Assembly: GCA_034226945.1 (NCBI GenBank)
Contig: CP120463.1
Location: 558,001 to 622,000, forward strand
Length of the DNA stretch: 64,000 nucleotides
Reading direction: 5' to 3'
Origin: Picochlorum sp. SENEW3
Taxonomy: Eukaryota
Shown here piece after piece: positions 29,267 through 37,610 of the stretch. Each line of letters begins with the position of its first letter. Within the stretch, counting starts at the first letter, position 1. The notes beneath the pieces were generated by a model. The model did no database searches and was not told the DNA's origin. It saw nothing but the letters and a program-made list of their open reading frames with translations. Made by a program: the position numbers and the translations under genes.

Positions 29267-30644
29267 ATGTCTGAAGCACCGGCTTCGCCACCAAAGACAG
29301 ACAAAGATGACACTTCAAAGAAATTGGGTCATGTATCGACGAGAGAGAAGAGATTTACAGAGCTAAAGGTGCGGAGGTCCTGCATGAGTGGGTCCATGCA
29401 TGCTATAGTGCTATTTCAAGAGTTCTACGACCATGTTGTATACTATCATGTTGCAGTTGGAAATTCCATCACCGGATATCGATAGAATTGCTTCGATTTC
29501 AATGTCTGCCTCGGGAAGCTCTGGGTCTTCCAAACTGCTCCGAGTTGATGAGCGACTGCATCGATGGTTGGAGGAAGAGGCCCTGCAGGTGTCGTCACCA
29601 AAGGGTATATCCAAGGTCGCTGCGGGGCAGTCGATGAGGCTGCATGCAAAGCTTCTCGTTTCGAATAGTGCAGCGGGATCTATTATTGGAAAGGTTGGGG
29701 TGAATATTCATCAGACGCAGTTACAGACTGGAGCCAAGGTGCAACTGTCCAAGGCCAATCAATACTTTCCAGGGACTATAGAGAGAACACTGCTGGTCAA
29801 AGGGAATCTGAGCCAGATTATTTCAGCATTATATTCGATCTATGTTCGTCTCATAGATGAGAATGCTGCTCCTATTTTAAGGGAGGAGGAAGAGGAGGAG
29901 GAAAAAGTTGGCGATGAAGGGGCTGTGGGAGAAGGTGAGGGCAGAGCTGTGTCAGACAAGGCGGAGGAACCCAAGGGTGCTCAGGATATTTTGCATCGGG
30001 TGGCATCATCTCATCTTCAGGTGAAGATGCTGGTCCCAGATGAATTGTGTGGTATTATTGTTGGGAAATCTGGGTCGACGATAAAGTGGTGTGCAGAAAC
30101 CACGAATACATCAATCAGGGTGCTAACCAGGAACCCATCTGTGTCTGGGACACTGACACATAAAATAGTTACTTTAAGGGGACATTTGGTCGATATTTTG
30201 AAAGCGATTGCGGTATTCTTATTAAAGCAGGCTGACGATCCAGAATTTACATCATACGGGCATATTCCAAGGACCTATGTTCGTGCTGGGTTTGGAAGCG
30301 AGTGGAGCGGTGTGGTGCCGTTTGCTCCTCAGTATCCATATGCTACGTATCCTGCTGCAGTTCCATATTCTCCAGCTGCATCACCGTTTACTTCCATGGC
30401 ATTTACAATTATTCCACAACATCAGCCTATCGTGGTTCGCAATTTTATTCAGTATGCTCACTACATACAACAAATGACTGGAGTGTTTATGAAACTCGAG
30501 CCATCACTTGAAGAAGGGAGGTTGGTTGTTCGTTTCCAGGGTCCACAGGAGCAGATTAACCAAGCGAGAGGATTGTTGTCACAGTTGCTTTCATGTAGCA
30601 CGGATATTCCGGGAACTTTTGAGCAGCCACGCTTCTCATTGTAG
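29267..30644 (+). CDS. KH-domain RNA-binding protein (NOVA/BTR1-like); intron 29369..29456
   Basis: KLLVSNSAAGSIIGKVG...LSKANQYFPGTIER and KMLVP...GIIVGKSGSTIK KH motifs; degenerate third KH. Confidence 0.85.
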
Positions 30645-30748
30645 CGATGATGAATTGATGCCATTGAAAACTGATGAGAGGAATTGCAACACTAGGTACA
30701 TACATTACACAAGAACAGTGATCATATATCTGTATGTCAAGAATATTA

Positions 30749-33178
30749 TTAATATGTATTTTCAGCTTTCAAAATATTCAACAGTTCGTCATGCTTTTCC
30801 CAAAATATCACTTTTGCATTTATTTTCTCTTGTGCGTTGAGGATGAGTTTCTCAAGGGAAAAACCTTTCCTAACCAAAACAATATCGTTTCTTCCAAGTG
30901 CCAAGGCTGGACAAAAATCATTTGCTCCATCCCCAACAAAAATGACCCGTTTTGCTTTCCTCTTCCTACTTGCTCTCATTGTGGCAAGTTCTCTGCCCTT
31001 GCACAGGTTTTCTGGGCAGTGGGGACACCCATGATGGCCACTACTCCTGTAATCATGTTTTGGTGAAACCACTAATTTGTGGTTTGTCTTTTCTGCTGGA
31101 TCTGCAATCTTGTCGCCAAAAAACCATTCATTGCTTGCAGAGTCCTGGGATACCGTCTGTTCACTACGCTCAAATGCTGCAGGGTTCGTCACAATCTCCG
31201 TGAAACAGGATTTGATCTTTGCAGCAGACAGAATGTGGTTGATGAATATGGTGTTGCAGTCAGACAATACTCGGCATTCAATGCCACTGCCAACACACCA
31301 TCGAATGGCAAGAATGGATCCTTTGGGCACCTCTGCTCCCATTCCTCGAAGAACATTTATAATCTTGTCACGAGACACTCCTCGCCTATGCATTTCTGAT
31401 AGTACAGTATTTGTCAACGGAATAAAATTGGCAGGGGATTCGACAGAGCTCAACAGAGACGTCAACTCTGGTGAGATTTCGTCTGTCAATCGCTCTCCTG
31501 CATCCCAGTCTGTTATTGTTTTGTCAAAGTCCATCACAAGCATCATCTCGGAGGGCAAAATATGCGAATATATTTCTCCTGCAGTATCGTTTGGCGACGG
31601 AAGAATAGTGGATGCACTTCTCTGTAAAGAGACAGTGGCTTCCTTGGCTTGAGCCATCTCAAGAGTTGGGTCCAGCCCTTGGAGCTGGAACCAATGCCGC
31701 ATGTTGAATCTGCGCCGCAACGCCAGGGGAATGTTCTTCTCTTTCATCAATGAAAAAATGAGTGGCTCGACTGCCTCAAGAAGAAGGCGATCATCAACGT
31801 CACCACGAAACTGTAGCACTGGAATTCCGAGATCTGGCTGCCTGAAAAATGCCAGTGGCGTGTCATCTACAAGAATGCACTTGTTAATATCTCTCCCAAG
31901 CTTTGACATATCTTTAACGCAAGGATATACTTCAGAATGTGTTGTGGCTGGCCTATAGAGCCTGTACGCAAAAACCTTTCCATATCTCCTTTCTATCTCG
32001 TCCAAAATCGGAGCGGCATAATCCTCCAACCCAGCTGTGAACAGAACAACTTCACACAAGCACGCAGCCCGTCTCAAAAAGTCCCCCAGACCTGGTCTCT
32101 CAACAACAAACACACCCCCAGGGTTGAGCTTCCCCCCTTGTCCAACAACATACGACACTGCAGAATCTGGAAGTCGCGGTGCCCTCTTTGGGGTAAATGT
32201 TGTCACAAGCGTCCCATCCAAATCCAGACATAAAGTCAGCTTGTTTCTATACTCTGGAAGCTGTGCCGGAAGCAAGTACGATTTCTCAAAAACATCCATT
32301 GGAACTGTCGATGTTGCCTCGGCATCCTTCTGCCGAGACTCAAGCTGAAGAAGGTACTTTTCTAGGTGCATGTCCACCACCAATCTATCCAAATTCAACA
32401 ACTCTTCCCTCCTACACGATGGACAGTTGAATGTCGCGACAGAACTTGCTTCATCATCTGAACAATCCCACACTGCCTTTTCATTCTTGTCAGCAGAAGA
32501 ATGATGCTCCTGCCTCCTCACCACGCTACACAGAGAGACCAGGCAGCCCCAACAATATATATGACTGCATGTCAGCACAACTGGACTCTTCAGAAGATTC
32601 AAACAAATAGCACATGAATACTCTTCCATGGCCTTGTCCACACTCATGGCCTCCATCCCAGGCATGCCCTTCTCCACCACATCCAACCTGGTCTTCATGC
32701 TCGCCAACTTGAGGGACGTGAAGAAGTGCTGCGTCGCCAGAAACTGAATCGGCTTCATCTTCTGAACAACAGAGTCATCCATCGCTATCGACATCATATG
32801 CCTATTTCTCTTCTTCACAGCTTTGACTACTGCAATGTAATTCAACAACACAAACTTGTTCAAGTCATGGACATCACTCTTGAGCTCTCGAAACGTATCC
32901 AACAGCTCCTTTTCAATCGATTCAGACACATGAGATCCCTTCATACTCTTCCCCTTCTCCAGAAACGTCCCCATCCGATACTCTAGAAAAGATTCCTGAG
33001 CATTGTAAAATGCATCAACCTTGTCCAGCTCAGACGAGAGAACACGACGGAATTCAGCACTCCCCAAGTCCCCCTCACTAATATCCTTCTTTATCGCTTT
33101 CTTCAATGCTTTATAGTCGACATACGACTCCAGCCAACGGCGTTCAGCCTCAGCCTCCAGGCGTTTGCCGAATTTCAT
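30749..33178 (-). CDS. SPX - RING (C3HC4) - FCP1/SCP (NIF) HAD phosphatase - PHOSPHO/PECP-type HAD phosphatase multidomain protein
   Basis: MKFGK...YVDYKALKK and KAVKK (SPX); CAIC...CSHIYCWGC...CPSC (RING); DLDGTL, ERPGL, FTAG, VDD (NIF); DFDKTI, SDCN, CPENLCKG, VGDGANDFCP (PHOSPHO1/PS2 type); one uninterrupted 809-aa ORF. Confidence 0.9.
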   Translation of the reverse strand: MKFGKRLEAEAERRWLESYVDYKALKKAIKKDISEGDLGSAEFRRVLSSELDKVDAFYNAQESFLEYRMGTFLEKGKSMKGSHVSESIEKELLDTFRELKSDVHDLNKFVLLNYIAVVKAVKKRNRHMMSIAMDDSVVQKMKPIQFLATQHFFTSLKLASMKTRLDVVEKGMPGMEAMSVDKAMEEYSCAICLNLLKSPVVLTCSHIYCWGCLVSLCSVVRRQEHHSSADKNEKAVWDCSDDEASSVATFNCPSCRREELLNLDRLVVDMHLEKYLLQLESRQKDAEATSTVPMDVFEKSYLLPAQLPEYRNKLTLCLDLDGTLVTTFTPKRAPRLPDSAVSYVVGQGGKLNPGGVFVVERPGLGDFLRRAACLCEVVLFTAGLEDYAAPILDEIERRYGKVFAYRLYRPATTHSEVYPCVKDMSKLGRDINKCILVDDTPLAFFRQPDLGIPVLQFRGDVDDRLLLEAVEPLIFSLMKEKNIPLALRRRFNMRHWFQLQGLDPTLEMAQAKEATVSLQRSASTILPSPNDTAGEIYSHILPSEMMLVMDFDKTITDWDAGERLTDEISPELTSLLSSVESPANFIPLTNTVLSEMHRRGVSRDKIINVLRGMGAEVPKGSILAIRWCVGSGIECRVLSDCNTIFINHILSAAKIKSCFTEIVTNPAAFERSEQTVSQDSASNEWFFGDKIADPAEKTNHKLVVSPKHDYRSSGHHGCPHCPENLCKGRELATMRASRKRKAKRVIFVGDGANDFCPALALGRNDIVLVRKGFSLEKLILNAQEKINAKVIFWEKHDELLNILKAENTY

Positions 33179-33358
33179 CCCAAACCTCGTCTACTGGGTA
33201 TCCTACTATGGCGTCGACTGGTAAGACTCTACAATGGATCCTTCGAATATTAAATAATGAAATATAAATATAGAATGGTCTAGTATGCCAGGGAATGCGA
33301 GGCATTGCGAGGGTATCTTTGACCACAACCCTACCAGGAATCTGCCGTCGTTGAAAAG

Positions 33359-33366
33359 GAATATAC
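33359..33366. promoter_or_regulatory. P1BS-like element GAATATAC (GNATATNC)
   Basis: Exact match to the PHR1-binding consensus about 180 nt upstream of the SPX gene start. It is a short motif and may be chance. Confidence 0.35.
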
Positions 33367-34622
33367 CCTTGGAGGGTTTTTCCATGGTCCAGGAGGCGCG
33401 GCGATGGAGGAATCTTCCATGATGATGGTCCACCACGACTGGCATGTACCCATTTCGAATACCTGCAATGCATATAGTAGTTGGATGGGCTGTGAGATAT
33501 AGAAACATGGTGGCGATGCCTTTTGTGTCACAGGTGATGTGGCTCCTCAGACATCCAAGGAAGGTTGGTACCGCATCAGCTCTCAAGCCTGCGCAGGCGA
33601 AAGCTCTAGATCGGGCACTGCGAATGTTTATGAGAAACGCCCTGATATGGAAATTTCAATCATTGGAGCACTGGATGACAAAAAAAAACGCAGAAAGGGT
33701 GCCTCAAAAGTGCCTCGGACTGCAGCCTTGACTGCGCCATGAGCACAACTGCCGGTTGACCATACATGCCGATGTATCCATGGCTGCAAATGGCGAGAAA
33801 CAACAAGGTTTCAGCGCCATTCCGCCATAATCGGGACTATCGTATGGCAACCTGTGGGCAGCGTTGGGTAGGTTCGTCCTGCACAGGGCAGGTTACCCAG
33901 CAGACACCACGGCCTGTGCACGTCGGCAACTTTCGTCACTGGCAATGAGACATCATGGTATGTATACAAAGCGCTCAGTGGAAGAAGAAGTCGTTTTTGG
34001 TGAAAATTCTAATCACGGCGAATGCCATCAGAAACAGCCTCAAAAGGTATCTTCATAGCGCAACATGAAGAGGGAATGCTCACCTGGATCCTTCCTGTTT
34101 CAGCAGTATTTATTTCTCTGATAGCAATATAGTACATTCACGTTCGTTTTCTGCGAGTCTGCAGTGCAGTATTGGGTACATTACGTCGATACTGTCTGTC
34201 CAAGAGATCATGTTGTCAAGTCCACGCTGAATCCCACCCACACAGTCTTGAAGGAGGGATGAATAACTACAGAGAGGGCTCATTGATATCGCTATCACCT
34301 AGTATGAGCCCAGAAAACCGTGGATTCTGTGCTCGACCGTCGGATAGCACAATTCCCAAATACAGCACCATGGGAACATACCATTTCCTGTATCACATGA
34401 TATAATGATTGCTCAGCATGTGTTCATATGATATAGTAAAGATGTCCAGAAACGTCGTCTCGTGGATGCAACAATAAGCAGCTCGAGATAGCGAGTTCCT
34501 GGGTCAACAACTGCCGGTGCCTTGATCATAACACCAAACAGCCTCATCGATCTTGCTTCTGGGAACGGGCAGTACAGAGATTGATTGCCTCTGACGGCCA
34601 ACTTTATAGAAGCCTTTTAGAG

Positions 34623-34988
34623 TGCTCAGACACAGCCAAGAGATGTAGAATCATCATGGCCACAAGGCCTCTGAAACTCTAGTCCATGAAAATTCTCAGT
34701 CGTCACAGCAATCCTTTGAATGCGCTATCAGTGCTGATTCGTACCTTGATTTGTTATCATTTTATCTTCTTTTCATAGTATATACACACGGGCGCGTGAA
34801 AACAAAACAAAACAGAGTGATGCGCTGCAAAAAGTACATGTGGGGTGGATTCAGCCAATGTAGATCATGTCCTCAACAGATGTGGGCAGCACCACATGAT
34901 GATGTTGCTCAGACAGCCAAGAGAATCTCAATCGTCACAGATTTGTACTCTGAAACTCTAGTCCTTAAATACTCATTCTTCACGGCAA
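34623..34988. repeat. Degenerate direct duplication of about 90 nt (34623-34711 and 34906-34988)
   Basis: Shared blocks TGCTCAGACA and ACAGCCAAGAGA, an exact 17-mer CTCTGAAACTCTAGTCC (34669, 34948), and CTCA.TC.TCAC.GCAA. Confidence 0.75.
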
Positions 34989-35810
34989 CAGCAGATCAAT
35001 GAGCCTGTAGGCTGCATACCTTGTAGTATACAAATCTGCATAGAAATATAGTATCCATAGTTACTGCATCCACACGCAGATATCGACAGGCGTCTATCTA
35101 TGGGAGAGTGATGGAGGTCAGGGTACTTTTATCTGCATCAGCTATGCTGAATAAATAACACGGACCAAAGTGGTTAGTTCATCACCCCTCCATCAGCAGT
35201 CTCCACAGGCACTCCTCCACTCCATCGGTAGCAAGCACTATCGCTCGGCCAAAAAGAACGTGTTAGGAAACCTTTATTTTCGTCACAGCCAATCAGTATG
35301 AGCTGGGTAAGGCAATCGTCATCACGATAGGCCGCACCACCGACGGATCAAGAGTGCATGCATGGCATCAAACGCATGGTATCGCAGCAACGCAATCCCA
35401 TACTACAAGTGGGGTCAGAGACCAAAAGGTCTAGTCAATCCTCATCGTTTATGCCCTGGCTTTGGGCACTAGGACTGGGGCGACAATCCAAACTCATCAG
35501 TCCCTCACTATGCTTCTTCTCTTGAGTATACAGTTTTCAAATTTTCACGTACCACATAGTGTAAAATATGTATTAAAAAATATTTAATGGGGAAGCGCCG
35601 GAGCATGCTTGCACAGACGTCGATGATGCTGTGGCAACTCCGCCCACATGATGATGGCAGTCTCTCCGGAGAGACTCTGGATCTGCAGATCTCTCGATTA
35701 AGAGATCTAGAGATCCATCCTGGTTGTTGATTGGTTGGAAATCATAACTGTTTGTTTCTTTAAAAAAGCACATCATTAGTATATATATGAGCAGAGTAGT
35801 CCAAGGATTT

Positions 35811-37610
35811 TCAGGGCAAGTTTGGTTGATAATCCTTTTGAATTGTTCTTCGGTTCCAGTGCAAACCTTCTCTGACACTTGTGAACCAGTCATGGCTTGC
35901 ATCCAAATGGCATACCATTGGCACCGGGCTTTGCGACAGATAGACGACGACACTATCACCTGGCCCCAAGGGCTGCCTGCCTTTTCCATCAAATGAGCAG
36001 TACAGGTCTCCCCTGCTATCTGTTGGGACTTCCAAACGCAGAATGACATGCTCCGGGAATACAAGCGGCCTAGATGACAATGTGTGTGGGCAAATGGGTG
36101 TAAATAAAATGCAAGGCACTGCAGGATGAACCATGGATCCACCCGCTGCCAAATTATATGCAGTTGAGCCAGTTGGGGTGGACACAATCAAGCCATCTCC
36201 TTGAATGGTTGCCATGAAGTGATTGTCGATATAGCACTCGAGCTTTGTTAATGAAGCAGTGATGCCTCGATCGATCACAAGCTCATTCAAAACCAAAACA
36301 TCCTCTCCACAAGGGGCTTTATTCAACATGCTGAAATCAGATTCCATGTCCCCTGCTCTGATTATTCTGCACTGTAGCCTATGTCGTAACATGAGAGGAA
36401 GCGAACTATTTGGAGAAACTACACATTCGACTGTCTTTTGTAGCCTTGATACCGGGAAAGGCGTCATGAACCCCAAGGATCCCATGGCAATGGCAACTAT
36501 TGGTGGCACAGATCCCAAGGTTCCGAGCAATGAGCATGTCCACAATACTGTCCCGTCGCCTCCAACGGTGAATATCAAATCTAACAGAGATATTATATCC
36601 TCTGGAATAGCATTACTGCACTCACAACTGCCAAGATTCCATGTATGCAAGTGGGCTGTGTTGCAACAAGAATCAGAGTCCTGTTGTGATTTGACACATT
36701 CCTTCACCCTCTCATACATCTTTGGCTCGACAAAAACATGTATACTTTCACGCAACAACAGACATATAGTTTTGACTGCAGCATCGAGTGCATCTGTGGT
36801 CAACTTGAATACAACCAGAACCCTTCGAGGCTGAGACATCCATTGCAGCTTCAAATGTGCTCCAAAAGCAACCCACTCAGATGTGGTCTCTAAAGTCGGA
36901 TCCAAATTATCAAACGGTATGCTCTCTTCTTGATTATATAGTACCTGCTCAGATACTGTTCTCTTTGGACCAGACATTCTACCAGGGCCTTTGGGCACCG
37001 CAGCAACAAGCCTAAACCTTGCCTTTGGGATTGATGCCATATCTGACGAGTCTGAAGCCCCAGAAAGGCTCTGATGACTTCCTTTGACTTTTGGTCCTGT
37101 CGCTGAAGTCCATGATTTCGCCAACGCTATTGATATAGCAGCAGCTGCTGCTGTTCCCACGCTGGATTGACCATCATTTGCAACTGAGACTGTTGCATGG
37201 TGATGATCCTCCTCCTCGAGCTTGGATTCGTGTGGTGATAGTTGGGCCAGCAAAAACCAAAATCCCAATGAACTATTAAATGCCGTTTCAGCGGCGCACG
37301 CTGCGTCTTCATGACTGGGAGGCTCCGACACAGTATGCCTTCTGCGAAGATGTGCCTTTTGAAAAGTCTCCTTCTTCTCTACCCTCGAAATTCCCAGCAC
37401 ATTGCTGAATGTACTCTTATTTCTATCAACCTTCTGTTGCTGATGGGATGTGTTCGAAACAAAGCGCTGCCGTTGCTGCAGTGATTCATGTTCTTTGCGC
37501 AGACTGGCAAGTGACTTCCTAGCTTCAGCAAGCTCCCTCTCAAGTACCTGTCTCTCGCGTGACGTCTCTTTAATAAATTGCAATAGACCTACAATACGAT
37601 TCAAGTCCAT
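35811..37610 (-). CDS. NADK: ATP-NAD kinase with N-terminal coiled-coil extension
   Basis: VGGDGTVL, GSLGFMT, VLNELVIDRG, GDGLIVSTPTGSTAYNLAAGG, TPICPHTLSSRP. Confidence 0.95.
   Translation of the reverse strand: MDLNRIVGLLQFIKETSRERQVLERELAEARKSLASLRKEHESLQQRQRFVSNTSHQQQKVDRNKSTFSNVLGISRVEKKETFQKAHLRRRHTVSEPPSHEDAACAAETAFNSSLGFWFLLAQLSPHESKLEEEDHHHATVSVANDGQSSVGTAAAAAISIALAKSWTSATGPKVKGSHQSLSGASDSSDMASIPKARFRLVAAVPKGPGRMSGPKRTVSEQVLYNQEESIPFDNLDPTLETTSEWVAFGAHLKLQWMSQPRRVLVVFKLTTDALDAAVKTICLLLRESIHVFVEPKMYERVKECVKSQQDSDSCCNTAHLHTWNLGSCECSNAIPEDIISLLDLIFTVGGDGTVLWTCSLLGTLGSVPPIVAIAMGSLGFMTPFPVSRLQKTVECVVSPNSSLPLMLRHRLQCRIIRAGDMESDFSMLNKAPCGEDVLVLNELVIDRGITASLTKLECYIDNHFMATIQGDGLIVSTPTGSTAYNLAAGGSMVHPAVPCILFTPICPHTLSSRPLVFPEHVILRLEVPTDSRGDLYCSFDGKGRQPLGPGDSVVVYLSQSPVPMVCHLDASHDWFTSVREGLHWNRRTIQKDYQPNLP

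Follow-up and report, generated by a model that had tools for sequence, protein, structure and literature searches.

The window analysed here is a 64,000-nucleotide stretch of Picochlorum sp. SENEW3 (assembly GCA_034226945.1, contig CP120463.1, positions 558,001 to 622,000), and its reverse strand carries a gene for a protein in which an SPX domain, a RING finger and two phosphatase domains follow one another. The coding sequence occupies 30749..33178 (-) and is complete and intronless, with 809 codons plus the stop; the frame runs from ATG through the stop without interruption, and splicing is unnecessary. In a Pfam scan the product (P0001) matches four non-overlapping families in the order SPX, RING, NIF and Put_Phosphatase, each above its gathering cut-off. 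Judged from the sequence, chance falls far short of explaining an 809-codon open frame with four such matches. Among 5.8 billion proteins searched, 110 relatives of P0001 were found. Residues were counted in an alignment of the 81 relatives that are at least 700 amino acids (aa) long, leaving out the 29 shorter matches; an alignment was used because the Pfam SPX model is weak on this family. The N-terminus, MKFGKRL, is the canonical SPX start and is common to the relatives: M1 is present in 69 of the 81 and nine are gapped there. The gene is real and single-exon and encodes one cytosolic four-domain protein of 809 aa, and it is nearly certain that P0001 is one real, conserved protein.

The SPX domain (residues 1-171; 32666..33178 (-)) is a helical bundle assigned from a Pfam match (PF03105, 41.9 bits against a cut-off of 27.8), from matches to solved SPX domains and from a structure model. 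Residues 1-148 match the solved domains of Gde1 (5ijj_A, 3e-8), Vtc3 and Vtc4. An AlphaFold model of residues 1-300, built with 65 sequences, has a predicted template modelling score (pTM) of 0.70; it is all-helical, and its predicted local distance difference test score (pLDDT) is 90-98 over residues 20-170. A fold search with the full-length model superimposed the domain on 5ijj_A with a template modelling score (TM) of 0.73 and a root-mean-square deviation (rmsd) of 3.5 Å, and XPR1 SPX domains were also matched. By its entry title, 5ijj is the SPX domain of Chaetomium thermophilum Gde1 solved with an inositol phosphate ligand. In the naming reported by Wild and colleagues in 2016, the basic ligand-binding surface has a Tyr and a Lys on helix 2, and helix 4 carries a K-x2-K-K-x2-K cluster. 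The basic surface residues in P0001 are Y22, K26, K119, K122, K123 and R126, and the HMMER alignment equates the K-x2-K-K-x2-K of 5ijj_A with K119, K122, K123 and R126.

The SPX domain is followed by a C3HC4 RING (residues 186-258; 32405..32623 (-)), which is matched by zf-RING_UBOX (30 bits, cut-off 25.2) and zf-C3HC4 (22.5 bits, cut-off 21). Matches of its first half to the RINGs of TRIM and BRCA1 have E values from 3e-6 to 1e-4. The ligands are spaced C189-x2-C192-x11-C204-x-H206-x2-C209-x2-C212-x39-C252-x2-C255, which satisfies the C3HC4 consensus. A variable 39-residue insertion (residues 213-251; 32426-32542 (-)) separates zinc ligands 6 and 7; this spacing is 39-104 residues in the relatives (median 55, n=77). 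The RING is the weakest of the four domain calls, and by analogy with known RING proteins it may well act as a functional E3.

The third domain is a NIF, or FCP1-homology, domain of the small-C-terminal-domain-phosphatase (SCP) type (residues 314-480; 31739..32239 (-)), with 110.4 bits to PF03031 against a cut-off of 21.8. Its catalytic residues are DLDGT 319-323 (D319, D321, T323), T381, K422 and D438-D439. The best sequence matches are human CTDSPL (2hhl, 8e-21) and CTDSP1/2 (to 3e-18), followed by CTDNEP1 (9e-15) and TIM50 (3e-12). The fold matches rank similarly, SCP1 at TM 0.88-0.90 (rmsd 2.5-2.8 Å), CTDNEP1 at 0.62-0.66 within a non-SCP Dullard/TIM50 range of 0.62-0.77, and Fcp1 at 0.33. 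The Pfam scan of P0001 found no BRCT domain. Because SCP1/2/3 lead in both E-value and TM, and a BRCT domain is missing, the domain is classed as SCP-type, not FCP1-type. It shares the DxDxT, T, K and DD motifs with SCP1/CTDSP1, CTDSP2 and CTDSPL, and the fold (TM 0.85-0.90, rmsd 2.5-4.7 Å). The human SCPs are small and single-domain, 180-200 residues as crystallised, whereas the domain in P0001 sits between a RING and a second phosphatase; it also differs from the SCPs by an insertion of its own, GGKLNPGGVFVVERPG, that is strongly conserved, and by an RRFNMxxWF helix at its C-terminal end. Going by the titles of the structure entries, enzymes of the SCP type remove phosphate from phospho-Ser/Thr in proteins, and from its residues the domain in P0001 is very likely active.

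The last domain (residues 546-804; 30767..31543 (-)) is a Put_Phosphatase of the HAD-IB group, the family of PHOSPHO1/2, PECP1 and PS2, and is referred to here as PHOSPHO. It scores 162.8 bits against a cut-off of 27 with PF06888, aligning model positions 2-231 of 234, and 111.7 bits against 81.55 with NCBIfam TIGR01489 (MtnX-like HAD-IB). The HAD motifs are DFDKT 550-554 (D550, D552, T554), S639-D640, K727 and GDGAND 749-754 (D750, D754), and the family's C-x2-C-x4-C cap motif is present. A sequence search of the PDB with this domain gave no match at E 0.01; its nearest folds are MtnX (2fea, TM 0.68) and cytosolic 5'-nucleotidase III. PF06888 enzymes hydrolyse small phosphomonoesters or pyrophosphate, the characterised substrates being phosphoethanolamine/phosphocholine, pyrophosphate (PPi) or pyridoxal phosphate (PLP). 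The domain has a full-length PF06888 match and the HAD motifs in common with PHOSPHO1/PHOSPHO2, PECP1 and PS2 (PPsPase1); the known members, at about 250-300 aa, stand alone as enzymes, and here the domain is fused. A search for short relatives gave 38 matches, mostly unnamed or with automatic MtnX-type names, and since none is a characterised enzyme the substrate cannot be inferred from them. The intact motifs make it likely that the domain is active in this species.

An earlier note on this DNA had claimed a single intronless 809-aa open reading frame (ORF) with SPX, RING, SCP-type and PHOSPHO-type domains in that order in one polypeptide, and with intact catalytic and ligand-binding residues; it is borne out on each point. 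The frame at 30749..33178 (-) is uninterrupted and all four domain calls pass the Pfam cut-offs. The motifs that the note had listed are all found in the translation, YVDYKALKK at 19-27 and KAVKK at 119-123 in the SPX domain, DLDGT at 319-323 in the first phosphatase, and DFDKT at 550-554, SDCN at 639-642 and GDGAND at 749-754 in the second. The ligand-binding residues that it saw retained in the SPX domain (Y22, K26, K119, K122, K123) are present, as are the eight zinc ligands of its C3HC4 RING, for which Pfam RING models score above cut-off; its FCP1/SCP-type phosphatase with DLDGT stands on the PF03031 match and the full motif set, and its second HAD phosphatase on the PF06888 match and HAD motifs I-IV.

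The two phosphatase domains could also be joined in a lipid pathway. Phosphate-gated membrane-lipid remodelling would have the NIF domain take the part of Dullard/Nem1, with a phosphatidate phosphatase of the lipin type as its substrate, and the PHOSPHO domain that of plant PECP1, with phosphocholine or phosphoethanolamine head groups as substrates, so that together they recycle phospholipid phosphorus. The Dullard/Nem1-lipin step and the PECP1 head-group step both belong to the plant pathway of lipid remodelling under phosphorus starvation; PF06888 includes PECP1 and PHOSPHO1, which are head-group phosphatases, and CTDNEP1 (Dullard) is a significant match in sequence (9e-15) as well as in fold. 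SCP1/2/3 are, however, clearly ahead of CTDNEP1 (8e-21 vs 9e-15; TM 0.88-0.90 vs 0.62-0.66), no partner or membrane-binding element was seen in P0001, and the RING is left without a role. A lipid-remodelling function is thus improbable.

The four-part protein is widespread among green algae. An exhaustive HMMER search over 1.84 billion representatives gave 97 proteins at E <=1e-30. All four families were counted by hand in the precomputed Pfam annotation of 27 of the 110 relatives, and in the alignment all four key-residue sets occur together, in the same order, in 57/81. The NIF residues D319/D321/T381/K422/D438/D439 are kept together in 81/81, the eight RING zinc ligands in 77/81, and the PHOSPHO residues D550/D552/K727/D750/D754 together in 73/81. 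K119/K122/K123 of the SPX domain are found in 77/81, the other four being gaps; Y22 and K26 are found in 64/81 each, the rest being mostly N-terminal gaps in which truncated models and real losses are indistinguishable. Median identity to P0001 is 41% in the SPX domain, 61% in the RING core, 58% in NIF and about 50% in PHOSPHO. The RING insertion, the linker and the loop in PHOSPHO reach only 12-17%, and residues 501-542 have 14% against the 58% of NIF. The linker (residues 514-537; 31568..31639 (-)) is poorly conserved and, like the loop at 675-696 in the last domain, disordered in the full-length model (pLDDT <50). Conservation of the domains combined with variation in the linkers is what genuine domains on genuine linkers should show.

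The full-length relatives that carry a name are all chlorophytes. By class they are trebouxiophytes (Picochlorum, Trebouxia, Apatococcus, Elliptochloris, Myrmecia, Symbiochloris, Micractinium) and chlorophyceans (Chlamydomonas incerta, C. schloesseri, Volvox, Gonium, Astrephomene, Edaphochlamys, Dunaliella, Haematococcus, Sanguina, Scenedesmus, Tetradesmus, Raphidocelis), with Tetraselmis and one pedinophyte besides. The ESM Atlas cluster has 58 members, all Eukaryota, and Chlorophyta is the commonest phylum among the 42 for which the phylum is known. No Chlamydomonas reinhardtii orthologue was found among the 110 matches or in the clusters looked up. P0001 shares a 90% identity cluster with an 812-aa 'hypothetical protein' of Picochlorum sp. 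BPE23 (KAI8103902.1), and the names given to the family in databases are only 'hypothetical', 'FCP1 homology domain-containing' and 'CTD small phosphatase-like'. On the alignment, the four-part proteins form one orthologous family that has been conserved throughout the chlorophytes, with ligand, zinc and catalytic residues under constraint.

Transcripts bear on whether the four domains form one polypeptide. Transcriptome ORFs of two relatives cover 99% of P0001, one from Tetraselmis chuii (MMETSP; P0054, 861 aa) and one a TRINITY ORF marked complete (P0075, 767 aa). Contigs of four sequencing runs were aligned to positions 30400-33600 of the window. Runs X7 (a metatranscriptome) and X9 (an oligo-dT metatranscriptome) are recorded as RNA; for X1 and X2 RNA is only a guess, X1 being flagged as probably DNA, and neither was used as expression evidence. 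The X7 and X9 contigs are 90-99% alike to the window and no joints were reported. They cover the SPX domain (X7 32779-33064; X9 32873-33043) and the RING (X7 32415-32646), bridge the RING-NIF junction (X7 32100-32430; X9 32205-32428), run from NIF into the linker (X7 31582-32094) and cover the PHOSPHO domain (X7 31386-31536 and 30936-31365).

A fused gene can also arise as an artefact, by chimeric assembly or by read-through of neighbouring genes, and the same neighbourhood holds an example: a 1487-aa model from Picochlorum sp. BPE23 joins the upstream NAD kinase to the SPX-RING-NIF-PHOSPHO protein. In some genomes, moreover, the PHOSPHO part is annotated as a separate neighbouring gene. Against an artefact, the frame is open for 809 codons without splicing, dozens of genomes, metagenomes and transcriptomes of independent origin contain collinear proteins, the linkers between the domains keep the frame and vary in sequence as true linkers should, and one X2 contig, whose kind is a guess at RNA, spans 30400-32714 in one piece. 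An artefactual fusion is scarcely credible, and this explanation is already close to refuted. The protein that the earlier note had described from a single alga is neither split by the relatives' transcripts and the RNA-library contigs nor particular to this alga, its domain order being conserved in chlorophytes beyond Picochlorum.

Plant NLA/BAH1, of the SPX-RING group that makes up class IV of the SPX proteins, has in common with the first 260 residues of P0001 an SPX domain at the N-terminus, a C3HC4 RING after it, the basic residues of the SPX domain and the eight zinc ligands, as far as the architectures were compared. NLA, about 335 aa long, stops after the RING, whereas P0001 continues for 550 residues with two phosphatase domains; since the two-domain definition of NLA does not hold for it, P0001 is filed as an SPX-RING variant and not as NLA. 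In passages of two reviews (one of them PMC13153306), NLA is described as the SPX-RING E3 for PHT1 phosphate transporters. P0224, a metagenomic protein of 272 aa in which SPX and RING stand alone, shares 34% identity with P0001 over residues 1-232; its RING is compact, without the long insertion between ligands 6 and 7, and it has Lys at the R126 position. By its sequence, P0224 may be akin to the ancestor before the fusion, or may be an NLA-like protein. A search for short SPX-RING relatives gave 21 matches; most are pieces of members of this family and none is a named plant NLA, although the word index used may not reach NLAs.

Fusions of SPX to enzymes of phosphate metabolism have precedents. 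Fungal Gde1, the best solved match of the P0001 SPX domain, joins SPX to a phosphodiesterase, a phosphometabolite hydrolase, and a HAD-type S6PP_C-SPX fusion of Selaginella is among those listed in the available part of PMC8717665. Both differ from P0001 in enzyme families, order and partners, and neither has a RING or a protein phosphatase. The same part of PMC8717665 surveys Chlamydomonas reinhardtii and Ostreococcus lucimarinus, places the origin of the RING class in later-diverging plants and lists other algal SPX fusions, the SPX-RING-NIF-PHOSPHO order not being among them. The accessible passages of a 2026 review (PMC13153306) root the SPX-RING subfamily in the chlorophyte Volvox carteri, a tree statement that is what speaks for orthology to plant NLA, and make no mention of phosphatase domains; those of PMC11528361, PMC5795055 and PMC6606587 do not mention the four-domain architecture. 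Surveys of SPX proteins, in the portions at hand, recognise four plant classes and a few algal extras. A full-text literature search that included the locus tags of six relatives, with supplements outside its scope, turned up no paper in which SPX is described together with NIF or Put_Phosphatase, and the note, too, knew of no characterisation of the combined architecture. The chlorophyte SPX-RING-NIF-PHOSPHO family is real, conserved and uncharacterised.

The function of the protein, including the note's proposal that sensing of phosphate is coupled in it to ubiquitination, protein dephosphorylation and phosphate release, is inferred from the known roles of SPX, NLA, SCP and PHOSPHO/PECP1 proteins. 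By analogy with these, we consider it moderately probable that P0001 is an NLA-like E3 ligase gated by inositol pyrophosphates (PP-InsPs) and coupled in cis to a protein phosphatase, with the metabolite phosphatase as an accessory; a role in phosphate homeostasis is favoured to about the same degree. Inositol pyrophosphates that report phosphate status are the ligands of SPX domains according to review passages. The SPX domain of P0001 would bind them as a read-out of cellular phosphate status, and its occupancy would decide which targets are recruited for ubiquitination by the N-terminal NLA-like SPX-RING module, with phosphate transporters as the precedent from plants. Phospho-Ser/Thr on that target, or on a neighbouring protein, would be the substrate of the tethered SCP-type phosphatase, and the C-terminal HAD domain would hydrolyse a small phosphomonoester or pyrophosphate, phosphoethanolamine, phosphocholine and PPi being the substrates of the family. 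It is possible, if rather doubtful, that the proteins make up an overlooked, chlorophyte-specific fifth SPX class in which one receptor domain gates ubiquitination, protein dephosphorylation and phosphate-ester hydrolysis in cis. A bolder form of this idea would have the HAD domain act on pyrophosphate-type signals and so feed back on the SPX ligand.

A number of observations weigh against the ligase reading, in the coupling of the domains as well as in the gene itself. In the PHOSPHO domain the nucleophile Asp is lost in 5/81 relatives (P0074, which is Chlamydomonas eustigma, P0075, P0078, P0080 and P0082), and at least one of the five key residues is lost in 8/81, so that the activity is dispensable in some lineages. 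The SPX, RING and NIF sets are intact while the PHOSPHO set is not in P0063, P0074, P0075, P0078 and P0080, the end of the domain being missing in P0063. The nucleophile-less five form, by their residues, a pseudo-phosphatase subset. In most of them motif IV is also degenerate; NIF is intact in all five, and SPX and RING in four. With the nucleophile gone in these relatives, release of inorganic phosphate (Pi) cannot be the conserved core of the family. On the residue counts, SPX-RING-NIF is the conserved core and PHOSPHO an accessory, catalytically intact here and decayed in a few lineages.

Such a core can also be viewed as a nuclear regulator of gene expression, in which the SCP-type domain dephosphorylates the C-terminal domain (CTD) of RNA polymerase II or a transcription factor (for example in the PSR1 pathway), RING and SPX serve as recruitment or turnover modules, and PHOSPHO is incidental. 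In both sequence and fold, the nearest counterparts of the NIF domain are human SCP1/2/3, phosphatases of CTD Ser5, and the domain is the most strictly conserved of the four, with its catalytic residues in 81/81; the decay of PHOSPHO in 5/81, while the other three domains remain intact, points the same way. A best match to SCPs does not, however, fix the substrate, members of the SCP family having many non-CTD substrates. The Pfam scan found no DNA-binding, BRCT or other nuclear feature, and the retention of the PHOSPHO key residues in 73/81 argues that this domain is not incidental. A nuclear regulator is therefore unlikely, and a PP-InsP-gated ligase coupled to a protein phosphatase is preferred.

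The remaining points on the same side concern the domain calls, the continuity of the gene and its control. The Pfam SPX alignment is confined to model positions 1-31, the first 31 residues of the protein, and the rest of the domain was therefore checked by the solved-SPX matches and the structure model. The fourth basic position of the SPX cluster is Arg (R126), not Lys as in solved 5ijj_A; among the 81 relatives it is R in 69, K in nine and a gap in three. The long insertion between ligands 6 and 7 is unusual for a RING, and residues 178-298 have pLDDT <50 in both AlphaFold runs, even with 65 sequences. Because the full-length model has a pTM of only 0.38, no fixed arrangement among the domains is predicted; a three-chain complex prediction (NIF 298-512, PHOSPHO 540-809, SPX 1-175) scored 0.00 against a mark of 0.34, which, run without controls, is no evidence either way. 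At the linker-PHOSPHO junction, 45 nucleotides (nt; 31537-31581) are bridged by neither X7 nor X9 contigs; stretches that these two runs leave uncovered carry no evidential weight, and the contigs themselves are support and not proof, since they carry no strand or ends and RNA libraries may hold DNA. The Chlorella variabilis annotation splits SPX-RING-NIF from PHOSPHO into CHLNCDRAFT_137319 and _137320, which follow one another in locus number and lie on one contig, and Scenedesmus sp. NREL 46B-D3 likewise has two models on one contig (P0092 and P0301); these splits may be real gene fissions or split gene models. Finally, a single P1BS-like octamer, GAATATAC, lies 181 nt upstream of the ATG (33359..33366 (+)). 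The chance of one such site in the 364-nt promoter is about 1 in 5 at the window density of 31 per 64 kb, and the lone site is a weak lead to PSR1/PHR1 control, compatible with chance.

Counted over the whole window, octamers of the P1BS type, GNATATNC, number 31 against 14.3 expected (sd 3.4), and none of 100 dinucleotide-preserving shuffles reached 31. Downstream of the SPX-RING-NIF-PHOSPHO gene lies a convergent KH-domain gene (29433-30644 (+)), whose stop is 105 nt from the stop at 30749 (-); because the stops are so close, the 3' untranslated regions of the two genes probably overlap. One X2 contig covers both 3' ends. Upstream, on the same strand, is an NAD kinase gene (35814-37589 (-)), 100% identical to a Picochlorum sp. 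SENEW3 record, and the 2.6 kb between it and the SPX-RING-NIF-PHOSPHO gene are without a long ORF. This interval contains seven C/D-box small nucleolar RNA (snoRNA) matches in a row (33543-35504 (-)), in the order SNORD14 (62.9 bits, E 2e-12), snoZ152, snoZ157 twice, SNORD18, snR71 and snoU31b, of which only snoU31b exceeds its gathering score. By sequence the row looks like a polycistronic snoRNA cluster. The depth of X2 jumps at 33511-33600. The 1487-aa BPE23 model (KAI8114042.1, P0243; window 30752-37589) strings together the NAD kinase, short fragments from the snoRNA interval and the complete SPX-RING-NIF-PHOSPHO protein. The annotation is chimeric, the true start being MKFGKRL as in the relatives, and it is the reason why NAD kinases share a 90% cluster with P0001.

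In eukaryotes the phosphate-status signal is received by SPX domains, and the way in which these govern the enzymes attached to them is under active study. An SPX-RING module wired to two phosphatases is a compact and genetically tractable system, intronless in Picochlorum and with orthologues in relatives of Chlamydomonas, that is suited to asking whether PP-InsP binding exerts control in cis over catalytic domains, and on which targets the algal equivalent of NLA acts. The finding is also relevant to wastewater treatment with microalgae, where phosphorus uptake and storage might be engineered. If the fifth-class reading is true, the protein would be a self-contained phosphate-signalling node for tasks that land plants spread over NLA, protein phosphatases and PECP1/PS2-type enzymes.

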